Shown: one piece after another, positions 5,140 through 11,863 of the stretch
How the letters are laid out: the number at the start of each line of letters is the position of its first letter
Numbering within the stretch: position 1 is the stretch's first letter
Source: Escherichia coli O157:H7
GTDB taxonomy: Bacteria > Pseudomonadota > Gammaproteobacteria > Enterobacterales > Enterobacteriaceae
DNA length: 64,000 nucleotides
Strand: one strand, 5' to 3'
NCBI RefSeq assembly: GCF_013167455.1
Contig: NZ_CP038328.1
Translations under genes and position numbers: made by a program
Notes under the pieces: generated by a model
What the model was told of the DNA's origin: nothing
Seen by the model: only the letters and a program-made list of their open reading frames with translations
The model's database searches: none

Positions 5140-6825
5140 TTGAAGAAGGTTTGGCTTAACCGTTATCCCGCGGACGTTCCGACGGAGATCAACCCTGACC
5201 GTTATCAATCTCTGGTAGATATGTTTGAGCAGTCGGTCGCGCGCTACGCCGATCAGCCTGCGTTTGTGAATATGGGGGAGGTGATGACCTTCCGCAAGCT
5301 GGAAGAACGCAGTCGCGCGTTTGCCGCTTATTTGCAACAAGGGTTGGGGCTGAAGAAAGGCGATCGCGTTGCGTTGATGATGCCTAATTTATTGCAATAT
5401 CCGGTGGCGCTGTTTGGCATTTTGCGTGCCGGGATGATCGTCGTAAACGTTAACCCGTTGTATACCCCGCGTGAGCTTGAGCATCAGCTTAACGATAGCG
5501 GCGCATCGGCGATTGTCATTGTGTCCAACTTTGCTCACACGCTGGAAAAAGTGGTCGATAAAACCGCAGTTCAGCACGTTATCCTGACCCGTATGGGCGA
5601 TCAGCTTTCCACAGCGAAAGGCACACTGGTTAACTTCGTTGTTAAATACATCAAACGTCTGGTGCCGAAATATCATCTGCCAGATGCCATTTCATTTCGT
5701 AGCGCCCTGCACAACGGCTACCGTATGCAGTATGTCAAACCTGAACTGGTGCCAGAAGATTTAGCCTTCCTGCAATACACTGGCGGCACCACAGGTGTGG
5801 CGAAAGGCGCGATGCTGACTCACCGCAATATGCTGGCGAACCTGGAACAAGTTAACGCTACGTATGGGCCTCTGCTGCATCCGGGCAAAGAGCTGGTGGT
5901 GACGGCGCTGCCGCTGTATCACATTTTTGCACTGACCATTAACTGCCTGCTGTTTATCGAACTGGGTGGGCAGAACCTGCTTATCACTAACCCGCGGGAT
6001 ATTCCGGGGCTGGTCAAAGAGCTGGCGAAATATCCGTTTACCGCTATCACCGGCGTAAACACCTTGTTCAACGCGTTGCTGAACAATAAAGAGTTTCAAC
6101 AACTGGATTTCTCCAGTCTGCACCTTTCTGCAGGCGGTGGGATGCCTGTTCAGCAAGTGGTGGCAGAACGCTGGGTGAAACTGACCGGACAGTATCTGCT
6201 GGAAGGTTATGGCCTGACCGAATGTGCGCCGCTGGTCAGCGTGAACCCCTATGATATTGATTATCATAGCGGTAGCATTGGTTTGCCGGTGCCGTCGACG
6301 GAAGCCAAACTGGTGGATGACGACGATAATGAAGTATCGCCAGGTCAGCCAGGTGAACTTTGCGTCAGAGGTCCACAGGTGATGCTGGGCTATTGGCAGC
6401 GTCCGGATGCTACCGATGAAATCATCAAAAACGGCTGGTTACACACTGGCGACATCGCGGTAATGGATGAAGAAGGATTCCTGCGCATTGTCGATCGTAA
6501 AAAAGACATGATTTTGGTTTCCGGTTTTAACGTCTATCCCAACGAGATTGAAGATGTCGTCATGCAGCATCCTGGCGTACAGGAAGTCGCGGCTGTTGGT
6601 GTACCTTCCGGCTCCAGTGGTGAAGCGGTGAAAATCTTCGTAGTGAAAAAAGATCCATCGCTTACCGAAGAGTCACTGGTGACCTTTTGCCGCCGTCAGC
6701 TCACGGGCTACAAAGTACCGAAGCTGGTGGAGTTTCGTGATGAGTTACCGAAATCTAACGTCGGAAAAATTTTGCGACGAGAATTACGTGACGAAGCGCG
6801 CGGCAAAGTGGACAATAAAGCCTGA
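5140..6825 (+). CDS. fadD: Long-chain-fatty-acid--CoA ligase FadD
   Basis: 561 codons from a TTG start ([14 protein letters not shown]...); AMP-binding motifs ([17 protein letters not shown]); ORF track extends to upstream ATG at 5074. Confidence 0.9.
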
Positions 6826-6843
6826 GCGTTAAGTCAGTCGTCA

Positions 6844-6870
6844 GACGCCGGTTAATCCGGCGTTTTTTTT
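6844..6870 (+). terminator. Intrinsic terminator after fadD
   Basis: acgccgg-ttaat-ccggcgt hairpin followed by T8 run; lies where the sRNA SroD is mapped in K-12 as I recall (not annotated here). Confidence 0.6.
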
Positions 6871-6894: not shown

Positions 6895-8022
6895 TTGAAT
6901 TACCAAATGATTACCACGGACGATGCGCTGGCTTCTTTGTGTGAAGCCGTCCGTGCCTTTCCGGCGATAGCCCTGGATACTGAATTTGTTCGTACGCGCA
7001 CTTATTACCCGCAGCTGGGGTTGATTCAACTTTTCGATGGCGAGCATCTGGCGCTAATTGATCCTCTCGGGATCACCGACTGGTCACCGCTGAAAGCGAT
7101 CCTGCGCGATCCGTCCATCACAAAATTTCTCCATGCAGGCAGTGAAGATCTGGAAGTGTTCCTCAATGTCTTTGGCGAATTACCACAACCCCTGATTGAC
7201 ACGCAAATCCTTGCTGCCTTCTGCGGACGCCCGATGTCATGGGGTTTCGCTTCCATGGTGGAAGAGTATTCCGGCGTTACGCTGGACAAGAGTGAATCGC
7301 GCACCGACTGGCTGGCCAGACCGCTGACCGAACGTCAGTGTGAATATGCAGCGGCGGATGTCTGGTATCTGTTACCGATCACCGCCAAGCTTATGGTAGA
7401 AACGGAGGCCTCCGGCTGGCTACCAGCGGCGCTGGATGAATGTCGCCTGATGCAAATGCGTCGTCAGGAAGTCGTTGCGCCGGAAGATGCCTGGCGTGAT
7501 ATCACCAATGCCTGGCAATTACGCACACGCCAACTGGCCTGTCTGCAACTGTTAGCCGACTGGCGACTGCGCAAGGCGCGAGAGCGCGATCTGGCGGTGA
7601 ACTTTGTCGTGCGTGAAGAGCATTTGTGGTCGGTAGCGCGTTATATGCCGGGAAGTTTAGGCGAACTGGACAGCCTGGGTTTATCCGGTAGCGAAATCCG
7701 CTTTCACGGTAAAACGCTGCTGGCGCTGGTGGAAAAAGCGCAGACATTGCCGGAAGAGGCCTTACCGCAGCCGATGCTTAACCTGATGGACATGCCGGGT
7801 TATCGTAAAGCGTTTAAAGCGATTAAGTCGCTGATTACTGACGTGAGCGAAACGCACAAGATCAGCGCCGAATTGCTGGCATCGCGTCGGCAAATCAACC
7901 AACTGCTGAACTGGCACTGGAAACTGAAACCGCAGAACAATTTGCCGGAGCTGATTTCCGGCTGGCGTGGTGAGCTGATGGCGGAAGCATTACACAATTT
8001 ATTGCAGGAATATCCGCAGTAA
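6895..8022 (+). CDS. rnd: Ribonuclease D
   Basis: 375-aa ORF from a TTG start (MNYQMITTDDALASL...); DEDDy exonuclease and HRDC features; recognised. Confidence 0.85.
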   Translation: MNYQMITTDDALASLCEAVRAFPAIALDTEFVRTRTYYPQLGLIQLFDGEHLALIDPLGITDWSPLKAILRDPSITKFLHAGSEDLEVFLNVFGELPQPLIDTQILAAFCGRPMSWGFASMVEEYSGVTLDKSESRTDWLARPLTERQCEYAAADVWYLLPITAKLMVETEASGWLPAALDECRLMQMRRQEVVAPEDAWRDITNAWQLRTRQLACLQLLADWRLRKARERDLAVNFVVREEHLWSVARYMPGSLGELDSLGLSGSEIRFHGKTLLALVEKAQTLPEEALPQPMLNLMDMPGYRKAFKAIKSLITDVSETHKISAELLASRRQINQLLNWHWKLKPQNNLPELISGWRGELMAEALHNLLQEYPQ

Positions 8023-8028
8023 AATTTT

Positions 8029-8071
8029 CCGAAGCCGGACTGGGCGCGCTCAGCGCCACATCCGGCTTCGG
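8029..8071. repeat. REP-like extragenic palindrome between convergent rnd and yeaX
   Basis: ccgaagccgga...tccggcttcgg GC-rich palindrome read directly. Confidence 0.45.
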
Positions 8072-8075
8072 CAAA

Positions 8076-9041
8076 CTACAAATCCAACACCAGGCGTTTA
8101 CCCTTCGCACGCGAACAACAGATCAACATACTTTGCTGGCTGGCACGCTCTTCATCGCTAAAATACTGATCCCGATGGTCAGCTTCACCTTCCAGTATTG
8201 CCGTTTCGCAGGTTCCGCATACCCCTTCACGACATAAACATTCCACTTTCGCGGCTTTATTATTTTCAATAACCTGCAAAATAGTCATCTCTTCCGGCAC
8301 CACAAACTCTTTTCCGGAACGGGCAAGCACCAGGGTAAATGCATCGCCGGTTTTGTCTTCGATAGCAAATTGCTCAAAGTGCAGCGTATCGGCAGCGATG
8401 TCCAGACGCGCAGCTTCACTTCTTACCGCTTCAATTAGCGCCTCGGGGCCACAGGTATAAACGTGTGTGCCAGGTTCGATATCCGCCAATAATCGCGCTA
8501 ATTCCAGTCGTGTTCCGGTCGATGATTGATGCAAATGGACTTTCTCAGCCTGCGGATGCTGGACTAGCTCATCACGAAATGCGCAACTTTCTGGATTTCG
8601 CGAGCAGTAATGTAGCTGCCAGTCGACGTCGCTGTGTTGCAACTCTGCCATGTGCGACAGGAAAGGGGTGATACCAATACCGCCCGCGATAAACAGATGC
8701 TTTCTGGCTGAGGGAATTAGCGCAAACAGGTTATTAGGCGTTGAGATCGTTAACCGATCGCCCACTTTTACCTGCTGATGCAAAAAGCGGGAACCGCCGC
8801 GCGAGTTTTCTTCCAGTCGAACGGCAATCTGATAACTAGAGGTGTTATGCGGTGAACTCAGTAGTGAATACGCATTACTGTACTGGTTATCACCATCGCT
8901 CATCTGCACTATGATGTGACTTCCTCCGGTGAACGCAGGCAGCGGTTTGCCATCGGTTGCCACCGGCGTGAAGCGTTTCACCTGTTCGGTAAGCGGTTCC
9001 ACCTGACTCACCTGTACTTCAAACATTTGATAGTCTGACAT
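8076..9041 (-). CDS. yeaX: Carnitine monooxygenase reductase subunit (CntB/YeaX)
   Basis: 321-aa ORF; FNR-like reductase with C-terminal 2Fe-2S ferredoxin cysteines (CREGVCGTCE). Confidence 0.8.
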   Translation of the reverse strand: MSDYQMFEVQVSQVEPLTEQVKRFTPVATDGKPLPAFTGGSHIIVQMSDGDNQYSNAYSLLSSPHNTSSYQIAVRLEENSRGGSRFLHQQVKVGDRLTISTPNNLFALIPSARKHLFIAGGIGITPFLSHMAELQHSDVDWQLHYCSRNPESCAFRDELVQHPQAEKVHLHQSSTGTRLELARLLADIEPGTHVYTCGPEALIEAVRSEAARLDIAADTLHFEQFAIEDKTGDAFTLVLARSGKEFVVPEEMTILQVIENNKAAKVECLCREGVCGTCETAILEGEADHRDQYFSDEERASQQSMLICCSRAKGKRLVLDL

Positions 9042-9066
9042 TGCTGTACTCCATCAAAAATCAGCC

Positions 9067-9090
9067 CGGCGGCGGAAAATACCGCCGCCG
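9067..9090 (-). other. Intercistronic GC hairpin between cntA (yeaW) and cntB (yeaX)
   Basis: cggcggcgg-aaaata-ccgccgccg perfect 9-bp stem, followed on the minus-strand transcript by GGCUGAUUUUUG. Confidence 0.35.
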
Positions 9091-9096
9091 ATGTCA

Positions 9097-10221
9097 TTAG
9101 TCCTTAAATACCTGCGCCAGCAGATTATGGAAATGGGCGATACCATGTTCGGAAATGCCGCTACCGCTACTGTCGGCCATGATGCGCCCCTGACCACGAT
9201 AGCCACGCGATTTCAGCCCTTTCTGTACGCTTTCAACCAGACGTAAATCTTCCGGACGGAACACATCGCGATACCACTCAATCAGCGATTTTTGCTCGTC
9301 GGTTAACTCTTCATTGGTGAAGTAAATATCGTAGTTTTGCAGGGTAGTTTCAGAATCCACCGGGAATTCATAAATGACCGTCATCATCCCTTTGATCGGG
9401 GTGACATTCAGCATCGTGCACGGCCACAGCCAGAAACCGTGGAATGCCGCATCCGTACCCTCTTCAAATTTAAACGACTGTTCGGACGGTTTGGCGAAAC
9501 CGTATTGCAGCGTCCAGTTACCGTGCATGGTGTGCCAGTAACGATCAACCTGTACGGAGTCGGAGAAACCTGGATGCGCCGGACCACAGTGATAGCACTC
9601 GAGATAGTTATCGACAATGTTCTTCCAGTTGGCAGGCGTGCGGGTGGTAAAGCGGGCCGCCAGTTTCAGATCGTGGACTTCCGGGCAGGCTTCCAGCACT
9701 TTCGCGCCCAGACCGGGTAACTGATCTTCTACGCTGGTGGCGTTGGGGTCCATGTTGATGAAGACGAATCCGGCATATTCTTCCAGACGCACCGGAACCA
9801 GTTGCGCTTTGTCGCTATCGAAATTGGCGACGTTTTCGCAGTTACGTGCATGGGCCAGATTGCCATCGAGTTTGAATGCCCATGCGTGATATGGGCAGGT
9901 AATCACATTTTTTGCTTTTCCTTCACCGCTCAACAACTGATGACCACGGTGCGGACACACGTTATAGAACGCGCGCAAAACCTTATCACGACCGCGTACC
10001 AGCACGATGCTTTCGCCAATGATCTCACGCGTCACATAATCATTGGCATTCGCCAGTTCGCTGCTGTGAGCGACGCAAATCCAGCTTTTGGCGAAGACGT
10101 TCTCTTTTTCGTGTTCAAAGGCGTTCTGATCGGTATAAAAACGGGCAGGAATGGTCCACGCCTCTTGCGGGTTAGCGCAAAAATTTTCGGGTAGTACAAA
10201 GTCAGGGCTCAGATTGCTCAT
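9097..10221 (-). CDS. yeaW: Carnitine monooxygenase oxygenase subunit (CntA/YeaW), Rieske-type
   Basis: Start at MSNLSPDFVLPENF gives 374 aa; Rieske motif CPHRGH...CPYHAW; ORF track extends to an upstream in-frame start at 10341. Confidence 0.8.
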   Translation of the reverse strand: MSNLSPDFVLPENFCANPQEAWTIPARFYTDQNAFEHEKENVFAKSWICVAHSSELANANDYVTREIIGESIVLVRGRDKVLRAFYNVCPHRGHQLLSGEGKAKNVITCPYHAWAFKLDGNLAHARNCENVANFDSDKAQLVPVRLEEYAGFVFINMDPNATSVEDQLPGLGAKVLEACPEVHDLKLAARFTTRTPANWKNIVDNYLECYHCGPAHPGFSDSVQVDRYWHTMHGNWTLQYGFAKPSEQSFKFEEGTDAAFHGFWLWPCTMLNVTPIKGMMTVIYEFPVDSETTLQNYDIYFTNEELTDEQKSLIEWYRDVFRPEDLRLVESVQKGLKSRGYRGQGRIMADSSGSGISEHGIAHFHNLLAQVFKD

Positions 10222-10252
10222 AGGGATACCTTTATCGTTAGGATGATGGCGC

Positions 10253-11863
10253 TCAGTTGTCGCCTTTGAATACGGTTCCCGCAGGGAGCACTGGTGTTTT
10301 TTCCAGGGCTTCAACCGGTGTCTGCGGGAGATAATGTTCAACTTGATGAGCCGGAATGTCGGCGTAATCCTGTTTCAGCCAGCGAATAAATCCGCCGACT
10401 TTCACCAGTAAAATGACGAGGAAGGGAAGGGCTGTGAGCACGACGGTGGTTTTCATCGTTTCCAGCGAAGCACCGGTAAACAAGATGGAAAGCGGGATCA
10501 GAGTGATCACCACGCACCAGAAAAGACGCAGCCCACGGTCAGGATCGTCACCTTCCTGGAGATTACGCGTACTGGTCGCCGCCATGGTGTAGGCCACTGC
10601 ATCCATATGCGAGGCAAGGAAAATAATCATCACGCCCAGGTATGCGGCGAGGAACAATTTACCGGCTGGCAACGACATCAGAACTTGCTGTACAGCTGTT
10701 TCGCCGCCCAGAGTTTCCAGCACCTGTGGGACGTTGATTACGCCATTGATAAACTGATGAATGGCATAGCTTTCCATTACGCCGAAGAAGAACCAGCAAC
10801 CGACGGTGCTGCCGAGGATCAGTCCCCAGATAACTTCTTTAATCTTACGACCGCGGGAAACGCGGGTGACAAACATTGCTACGCCAGGGGTGTATGAGAT
10901 CCACCACAGCCAGTAGAAAACGGTCCAGTTGCGGGTAAATGAACCATCGCCAAGCGGATCGGTGAATAAGCTCATTTGCAGGAAGTTTTGCGTGGTCAGG
11001 CCGATGGCATTGATGATGCTGTTGGTAATAAATTCGGTTGGACCGACAATCAGCACCAGTAATGGCAGCAGGAACGCGCCCCAGCCAACCATTTTGCTCA
11101 GACGTTGCAAACCGTTGTTGATACCAATCCATGAGCTTAGGCAAAAAATGCCGCCGGAAAGCAGGATCACAAATGCCTGCACGGTGAAGTTATCGGGTAA
11201 ACCGGTCAGTGCGGAAAGTCCACGAGTAAAGGTTGCTGCGGTGACAACAAGGGAAATAGTCAGTGCGCCGACAGTGGCGATCAGGAACATCAAATCAACC
11301 AGTTTTCCCCATGGGCCTTGCGGGCGAACGCCGGTAATCGCGGCAATAATGCCGGAAAGACTCAGACCTTTGTTTTTCCGCACATGAAAGTGATAAGCCA
11401 TGATTAATGAGGCCAGCGTATAAGTTGCCCAGGCGCTGATGCCCCAGTGGAAGAAGGAGTAAGGGACGCTAAATTCGAGTGCCTGTTGTGAACGCGGTGC
11501 GATATTTAATCCAGGCGTTTGATAATAATAGGCCCATTCAGCAACCCCCCAATAAAGCGTAGAAGAACCTAAACCGGCACAAATAAACATAAACAGCCAG
11601 GAGAGCGTGCTGTATTCCGGTTTTCCTTCGCCAAGACGAATATTGCCGTATTTACTGGTGGCTAAATAAATCACTAGTCCCATTGCCAGCAAAACCAATA
11701 CCTGTACTGCGGAACCTAACGTACGCGTAACAAAAGTGTATATTGCGTTGGCCGCGTCGGCCGATTGTTGTGGGAAAAGGCTTAATGCAGCTGCGATGAA
11801 AAGAATGGCCACCAGGCTGATGCTTATCAGCGGCACATCTTTTTTCTTAACATTGCTCATCAT
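10253..11863 (-). CDS. yeaV: BCCT-family transporter YeaV
   Basis: 536-aa polytopic membrane ORF; true start may be further downstream. Confidence 0.75.

Follow-up and report, generated by a model that had tools for sequence, protein, structure and literature searches.

A conserved intercistronic stem-loop between yeaW and yeaX in the carnitine monooxygenase operon of Escherichia coli

The spacer between yeaW (cntA) and yeaX (cntB), the genes for the oxygenase and reductase subunits of carnitine monooxygenase, specifies a hairpin that, judged by comparison of orthologous sequences, is a genuine RNA structure, conserved and under selection in Escherichia and Citrobacter. It is an ordinary intercistronic stem-loop, itself undescribed and of a well-known kind; such elements are common in bacteria, and this one holds no surprise for the specialist. 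What is added here is the origin of the element in an msadh-cntB leader, the displacement of its U-run in comparison with a canonical terminator, and the status of its all-GC form as a minority allele. By analogy with the malE-malF junction, the best, if tentative, reading of its function is that of an exonuclease barrier, possibly a weak attenuator as well, that would uncouple reductase from oxygenase mRNA levels. The products of yeaW and yeaX form trimethylamine from carnitine in the gut, which gives the amounts of the two subunits some practical interest, and the hairpin offers a clean, conserved, and easily mutated handle on whether oxygenase and reductase levels are uncoupled posttranscriptionally.

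The window, i.e., the whole stretch of 64,000 nucleotides of E. coli O157:H7 DNA that was analyzed, carries the operon on its minus strand, with rnd on the plus strand converging on yeaX. The names yeaW and yeaX are those of the RefSeq annotation in E. coli O157:H7 genomes that are 100% identical over 351 nt around the junction. A 55-nt gap between the two genes had been reported in an earlier note on this DNA, and it was confirmed as exactly positions 9042 to 9096. On the operon strand, it reads UAA-UGACAU-CGGCGGCGG-UAUUUU-CCGCCGCCG-GGCUGA-UUUUU-GAU-GGAG-UACAGCA-AUG. The genes and the parts of the spacer are as follows.

10253-11863, minus strand: yeaV, a BCCT-family transporter gene.
9097-10221, minus strand: yeaW (cntA), oxygenase subunit of carnitine monooxygenase, 374 aa; identified from the open reading frame and its translation, Rieske and Ring_hydroxyl_A domains, and RefSeq annotation.
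8076-9041, minus strand: yeaX (cntB), reductase subunit of carnitine monooxygenase, 321 aa; FAD/NAD-binding and 2Fe-2S ferredoxin domains.
9091-9096, minus strand: UGACAU, the 6 nt from the yeaW stop to the hairpin; complement of AUGUCA, the first 6 nt of yeaX, and putative closing helix P1.
9082-9090, minus strand: hairpin 5' arm, CGGCGGCGG; identical in all five Escherichia sequences compared.
9076-9081, minus strand: loop, UAUUUU; free variation of the spacer within Escherichia is confined to these positions.
9067-9075, minus strand: hairpin 3' arm, CCGCCGCCG; K-12-type sequences have U at the equivalent of 9068, which gives a G-U pair.
9061-9066, minus strand: GGCUGA, between the stem and the U-run; CUGAU (9064-9060) may instead pair with GUCAG at the yeaX start.
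9056-9060, minus strand: U5 run, separated by 3 nt from the Shine-Dalgarno sequence downstream; four of the five U residues are invariant in 18/18 spacers, and GA↓UUU fits the RNase E motif RN↓WUU.
9049-9052, minus strand: GGAG, the yeaX Shine-Dalgarno sequence, 7 nt 5' of the AUG; invariant in the alignment described below.

Tandem stop codons lie at 9094 to 9099 on the minus strand, the yeaW TAA (9099-9097) being followed by an in-frame TGA; E. albertii has TGA-TGA. Elsewhere in the window, the convergent gap between yeaX and rnd (8023-8075) contains a long REP-like palindrome, GCCGGATGTGGCGC...GCGCCCAGTCCGGC, of about -23 kcal/mol with a U tail in neither direction. The small RNA sroD (Rfam RF00370, 115 bits) was located at 6784 to 6869 on the plus strand, at the end of fadD and just upstream of rnd, and is the only Rfam match at gathering score within the 64-kb window. 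At the yeaW-yeaX site itself, Rfam 15 gave nothing at gathering score, either in a permissive scan of positions 8000 to 10500 or in a gathering-threshold scan of the whole window. The sole hit there was isrK, on the opposite strand and below threshold, with 19.8 bits against a gathering score of 50 and an E value of 0.24, which is chance level.

The perfect 9-bp, all-G/C inverted repeat described earlier is present, with arms at 9090-9082 and 9075-9067 and a 6-nt loop at 9081-9076. The U-run that had been said to follow the stem also exists on the operon transcript (U5, 9060-9056), but it starts 6 nt past the stem, with GGCUGA intervening; the offset is 5 nt if an extra U-G pair is counted, the stem then having 10 pairs. 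The hairpin alone (9090-9067, 24 nt) has a folding energy of -20.1 kcal/mol. In an 81-nt context the energy is -32.1 kcal/mol (z = -4.8), and none of 200 dinucleotide shuffles was as stable. Perfect all-GC stems of at least 9 bp with a loop of 3 to 8 nt are expected 0.03 times per 64 kb in Markov-1 random sequence, while the window holds one, the yeaW-yeaX hairpin, which is thus not attributable to chance.

Evidence for selection on the stem came from an alignment (A1) of 18 spacers from Escherichia, Citrobacter, a Raoultella-labelled metagenome-assembled genome, and Enterobacteriaceae RIT691. RNAalifold returned one consensus hairpin of 10 pairs for this alignment. Standard pairs occupy 92.9% of its pair cells, compared with 78% after column shuffling, and none of 500 shuffles reached the observed value, a count that is not to be read as a probability because the spacer sequences are related. 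As a control, registers slid by 1 to 3 columns were only 34 to 52% paired. Compensatory changes on both sides were found at 6 of the 10 pairs, and the arms occur in several lineage-specific versions, namely CGGCGGCGG/CCGCCGCCG, CCCGGCGCUG/CAGCGUCGGG, UCCGGCGCG/CGCGCCGGA, and CCCGG/CCGGG. G-U cells outnumber A-C cells by 15 to 4, which favors the sense transcript, rather than DNA or an antisense RNA, as the molecule in which the pairing is maintained. A hairpin of -15 to -21 kcal/mol is present in every orthologue and starts 6 to 21 nt past the upstream stop codon, a position that places it largely outside the footprint of a terminating ribosome.

Closely related sequences indicate the same. 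At 4-fold-degenerate sites of yeaW and yeaX, E. coli O157 and E. albertii differ by 46%, but the two spacers have only three differences, all within the 6-nt loop, and 0/18 stem positions are changed. The loop has thus diverged at approximately the neutral rate. In sequences of Escherichia sp. E1V33 and E. whittamii, two of three differences are likewise in the loop, and among the five Escherichia sequences the only changes in the stem are C-to-U substitutions that retain G-U pairing. A variable loop, a fixed stem, compensatory changes in the arms, and a strand preference together constitute the standard signature of a functional RNA stem-loop. Conservation of the remainder of the spacer is less informative. 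None of its 31 positions outside the stem is changed between O157 and E. albertii, but the yeaV-yeaW gap (10222-10252, minus strand), which has no hairpin, is equally frozen (31/31 identical in the same comparison), so that conservation outside the stem is not specific evidence. Identity between the two species falls, by contrast, to 70% in the yeaX-rnd gap.

The locus was found in 4,371 of 5,426 complete E. coli genomes and is absent from about 1,050. The earlier description of a perfect all-GC stem holds for the window, but not for the species at large, since this O157-type allele occurs in only 420 of the 4,371 genomes with the locus. A K-12-type sequence, exact over the 67 nt searched, is present in 3,780 of the 4,371 and differs from the window by a single C-to-U change in the 3' arm, at the equivalent of position 9068, which converts the second stem pair to G-U. 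Other variants account for about 170 genomes, and one rare allele (ETEC4069) has an A-C mismatch in the middle of the stem. With the 67-nt query and a 351-nt query, the median copy number was one place per E. coli genome, with none on plasmids, and the matches listed were always at the yeaW-yeaX locus. Two strains carry altered versions of the operon. In E. coli SL124 (positions 2440 to 2510 of locus L083), yeaV and yeaW are deleted and yeaX is kept with the hairpin and leader, the end of an IS1 element coinciding exactly with the first base of the hairpin 5' arm. In the K-12 derivative CJ236 (positions 517 to 1998 of locus L001), yeaV is annotated as a pseudogene with its N terminus missing.

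The spacer has a history that the earlier note overlooked. In a YeaW scan with one genome per species, the best 80 loci were taken, 78 of which were usable, and in 57 of these, cntA and cntB are separated by a gene of about 482 codons. Acinetobacter, Pseudomonas, Paraburkholderia, Xenorhabdus, and several Citrobacter are among the carriers. The product of the intervening gene is an aldehyde dehydrogenase (Pfam Aldedh, E = 5e-171), and the gene corresponds to the malic semialdehyde dehydrogenase gene (msadh) of the A. baumannii carnitine operon. The absence of msadh from the E. coli carnitine cluster has already been published, and carnitine did not support growth of the E. coli strains tested (PMC11353897). 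In Citrobacter that keep msadh, the msadh-cntB spacer consists of TAA-cga-TGACA...hairpin...GGGCTGATTTTTaaGGGAGTGCnGCg-ATG and can be aligned with the yeaW-yeaX spacer of E. coli over its whole length. This alignment identifies the E. coli spacer as the old msadh-cntB spacer, which stayed behind when msadh was deleted.

The deletion junctions differ between lineages. In an msadh-less group labelled Citrobacter or Raoultella (loci L011, L012, L013, L014, and L079), the cntA stop codon is followed directly by CCAGAGGCTGTAA, i.e., the last 10 nt of msadh with its stop codon. In Escherichia (comparison set L006 to L010 and L015 to L017), the cntA stop is instead joined directly to TGACA (TAA/TGACA). 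The different junctions imply that msadh was lost independently in Escherichia and in the Citrobacter group, and two independent losses add detail to the published picture of a truncated carnitine cluster in E. coli. Both deletions have their junction right after the cntA stop and kept the hairpin, the U-run, and the Shine-Dalgarno sequence. Retention of the hairpin beside cntB, whatever gene lies upstream, indicates that the element belongs to the cntB leader and not to cntA.

More distant operons have hairpins of their own. Among the best 80 loci, strong nonhomologous hairpins (-12 to -32 kcal/mol) occur in the cntA-msadh gap, the msadh-cntB gap, or both (L027 to L081), in lineages that include Acinetobacter, Pseudomonas, Paraburkholderia, and Neisseriaceae. 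Xenorhabdus and some other lineages among these loci have a hairpin at neither junction, which shows that the hairpin is not essential to the operon. The recurrence of nonhomologous hairpins, together with their absence from Xenorhabdus, fits a modulatory and dispensable role. Several Paraburkholderia have a pre-cntB hairpin that carries a canonical U tail and is situated about 80 to 150 nt upstream of the gene. A U-tailed hairpin so far upstream suggests that cntB may be transcribed separately in these organisms.

The earlier proposal of a processing, stability, or subunit-ratio element is, as a general class, one that the sequence features of the hairpin fit. The favored reading within that class is a barrier to exonucleases of the malE-malF kind. 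RNase E would cut the single-stranded, U-rich stretch just 3' of the stem (GA↓UUUUU), and the stem (-18 to -20 kcal/mol) would then block the 3'-to-5' exonucleases PNPase and RNase II. The oxygenase part of the mRNA would thereby outlive the reductase part, so that oxygenase would be made in excess, as for malE-malF; slight transcription termination at the same site could add to the effect. We infer the RNase E cleavage, the exonuclease block, and the effect on subunit ratio at yeaW-yeaX from the analogy with that system. The stem is too short, at 9 to 10 bp, for an RNase III site, which was rejected.

Several features agree with such a barrier. Intra-operon 3' stem-loops with a protective role have been documented in E. 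coli and are conserved (PMC5927463), and the yeaW-yeaX element is a stable hairpin inside a polycistronic transcript, 6 nt past the yeaW stop. It is conserved in related species, as seen in the 92.9% of paired cells and the restriction of change between O157 and E. albertii to the loop. The RNase E motif as given in PMC5927463, RN↓WUU, is matched by GA↓UUU in the single-stranded, U-rich stretch directly 3' of the stem. Against this reading, translation initiation would account just as well for the invariance of the U-run and for its fixed spacing from the Shine-Dalgarno sequence.

The supplementary text of three transcript surveys gave no operon-strand entry for this junction, and the operon is apparently silent under the laboratory conditions used. 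The supplementary text of an E. coli Term-seq study (Adams 2021) has no sense-strand entry at the junction and lists only an antisense 3' end inside yeaX. The supplementary text of the SMRT-Cappable-seq study (Yan 2018) contains no entries for yeaV, yeaW, or yeaX, nor does that of the operon-decay study (Dar 2018 PLoS Genet; PMC5927463), whose tables likewise lack yeaW and yeaX. The paper on YeaW/YeaX biochemistry contains nothing on operon structure or subunit ratio.

A leaky intrinsic terminator or attenuator, at which some RNA polymerases would stop at the U-run and transcribe yeaX less than yeaW, is an unlikely primary function, although the stem itself would be suitable, with its 9 G-C pairs (10 pairs with the U-G), 6-nt loop, -20.1 kcal/mol, and U5 run nearby. 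Both stem and loop fall within the ranges usual for intrinsic terminators, about 5 to 14 bp for a G+C-rich stem and 3 to 8 nt for the loop. A lenient consensus scan flagged the site as terminator-like. The proposal of a partial terminator in the earlier note is weakened by the region 3' of the stem, where a terminator would have its U-tract within 0 to 2 nt. The E. coli tail is GGCUGAUUUUUG, and a U-tract within 0 to 2 nt of the stem is found in only 2 of the 17 orthologues scored. The bases G, G, and C that adjoin the stem should hold the RNA:DNA hybrid together; stem-proximal G, G, and C are expected to disfavor transcript release in intrinsic termination. An approximate d'Aubenton-Carafa-type discriminant, computed with modern energy parameters, gave a U-tail score T of 0.47 and a d of -27.5 for the E. 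coli element. Calibration on five other hairpins of the window in both orientations gave d values of +7 to +38 with T of 3.3 to 5.2 for 6 of the 10 orientations and of -2 to -19 for the remaining four; none was as low as -27.5, and T for these hairpins ranged from 1.7 to 5.2.

Orthologues point in the same direction with a few exceptions. The discriminant is negative in 15 of the 17 scored, but the U-run directly adjoins the stem in C. braakii contig 23 (d = +21.5) and Enterobacteriaceae RIT691 (d = +2.6). The canonical U tails on the nonhomologous pre-cntB hairpins of several Paraburkholderia reach a T of 4.3. Across orthologues the distance from the U-run to the Shine-Dalgarno sequence is a constant 2 to 3 nt, whereas the U-run starts anywhere from 0 to 6 nt past the stem. 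With its spacing fixed to the Shine-Dalgarno sequence and not to the stem, the U-run behaves as part of the ribosome-binding region. In addition, the Term-seq supplementary text, as searched by gene name, gives no 3' end for the yeaW-yeaX junction. The displaced U-run, the discriminant, and the stem-proximal G/G/C make the hairpin at most a weak terminator. The possibility of an antisense or bidirectional terminator was considered and rejected, as no plus-strand T-run follows the stem and the mapped antisense 3' end lies inside yeaX, far from the hairpin. An internal promoter for yeaX was rejected too, as no minus-strand sigma-70-like site was found near the gap.

Control of yeaX translation by the sequences flanking the hairpin is likewise a doubtful alternative that arises from structure prediction. 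UGACAU or CUGAU would pair with the AUGUCAG of the yeaX start, and the U-run would pair with the Shine-Dalgarno sequence. On reaching the yeaW stop, a terminating ribosome would melt the 5' flank and expose the yeaX start, thereby coupling the two genes. In a related variant, the hairpin would merely insulate or present a U-rich, S1-friendly ribosome-binding site. UGACAU and AUGUCA are exact 6-bp complements formed by the first 6 nt past the stop and the first 6 nt of yeaX. For all five Escherichia sequences a three-helix fold is predicted between the stop codon and 12 nt past the AUG, consisting of UGACAU/AUGUCA, the GC hairpin, and a pairing of GCUGAUUUU with GGAGU and CAGC. In these folds the Shine-Dalgarno sequence is paired with a probability of 0.81 to 0.98 and the AUG with one of 0.70 to 1.0. 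The C. youngae and C. portucalensis groups have a different predicted pairing, CAGAU just past the hairpin with GUCUG at the start (P of about 0.9 to 1.0), and the U-A to A-U exchange relative to CUGAU:GUCAG of E. coli goes together with a synonymous change of the second codon between UCA and UCU. The invariance of the U-run, the Shine-Dalgarno sequence, and the spacing between them would also suit translational control.

Comparative support for these flanking helices, which are only 4 to 6 bp long, is weak. The P1 core GACA/UGUC can pair in 90.6% of A1 cells, but both of its sides are invariant and therefore provide no covariation information. The alternative helix CUGAU/GUCAG has 86.8% of its cells paired, a single covarying pair, and four groups of exceptions, and its score, matched by 44 of 500 shuffles, is not significant; it is not formed in the R56, NCU1, and Awk4 sequences or in On2M. 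The Escherichia fold that sequesters the Shine-Dalgarno sequence does not recur in Citrobacter, where pairing of that sequence reaches an intermediate level in the R56 group and stays low in the groups of C. youngae and C. portucalensis. The closing helix UGACAU/AUGUCA together with a paired Shine-Dalgarno sequence was predicted for no Citrobacter sequence, and the P3 helix (GCUG/CAGC) predicted in Escherichia was discarded because it is not conserved in Citrobacter. A frozen leader is present also at yeaV-yeaW, without such structure. The strongest form of the proposal is quite improbable. It would make the 55-nt spacer a three-helix switch (P1, UGACAU:AUGUCA; P2, the GC hairpin; and P3, U-run:Shine-Dalgarno) that arose anew at the deletion junction with the loss of msadh from Escherichia, and reductase translation would strictly need a ribosome finishing the oxygenase gene.

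There is also little likelihood that the hairpin is a relic that now does little or nothing, useful in an ancestral cntA-msadh-cntB operon and now simply carried beside the yeaX ribosome-binding site. The loss of msadh from E. coli and the failure of tested strains to grow on carnitine (PMC11353897) would be compatible with a relic, as would the absence of the locus from about 1,050 of 5,426 complete E. coli genomes and the presence of a predominant allele that weakens one pair to G-U and a rare one that breaks a pair. Within msadh-less Escherichia, however, 0/18 stem positions have changed against 46% neutral divergence while the loop drifts, and this argues for continuing selection on the structure after the deletion.

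A DNA-level element, i.e., a protein operator, a cruciform, or a dispersed palindrome of the REP/BIME type, is highly improbable despite the perfect GC-rich palindrome in the DNA, as the sequence is single copy in E. coli genomes, the arms change between species with pairing kept (a signature of RNA structure and not of a sequence-specific operator), and the 15 sense-strand G-U cells would be A-C mismatches in DNA or antisense RNA. REP and BIME elements are many dispersed genomic copies of a shared imperfect palindrome of about 35 nt. Membership in that family was rejected because the hairpin is single copy and, unlike the palindrome of the yeaX-rnd gap, has no resemblance to the REP consensus.

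Compared with known systems, the yeaW-yeaX hairpin shares some features with each of several classes. It resembles intrinsic terminators and attenuators, e.g., that of rplL-rpoB, in its GC-rich stem, short loop, and transcript U-run, in its position between two genes for products that the cell may need in unequal amounts, and in the canonical tail of two orthologues. It differs from them in that the E. coli U-tract is shifted by 5 to 6 nt, G and C residues adjoin the stem, and d is strongly negative. The predicted Escherichia fold, in which the 6 nt after the stop mask the yeaX start and the U-run masks the Shine-Dalgarno sequence, recalls the coupling of rpmI-rplT and of the MS2 coat and replicase genes, but the yeaX helices are short, lack covariation support, and form a fold that is absent from the Citrobacter predictions. 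As in the 5' stabilizers of the papBA type, the hairpin lies shortly upstream of the downstream ribosome-binding site and could cap a processed cntB mRNA. Unlike in that type, no U-rich RNase E-type site lies 5' of the hairpin, and the only sequence between the stop and the hairpin is UGACAU (6 nt), which would be covered by the terminating ribosome. The malE-malF element (Dar and Sorek 2018; PMC5927463) consists of REP repeats, whereas that of yeaW-yeaX is a single-copy, 24-nt hairpin. Both are very stable stem-loops after the upstream cistron of a polycistronic mRNA, conserved in structure among related enterobacteria and with a single-stranded RN↓WUU-like site downstream, and in both the expected outcome would be more of the upstream than of the downstream product.
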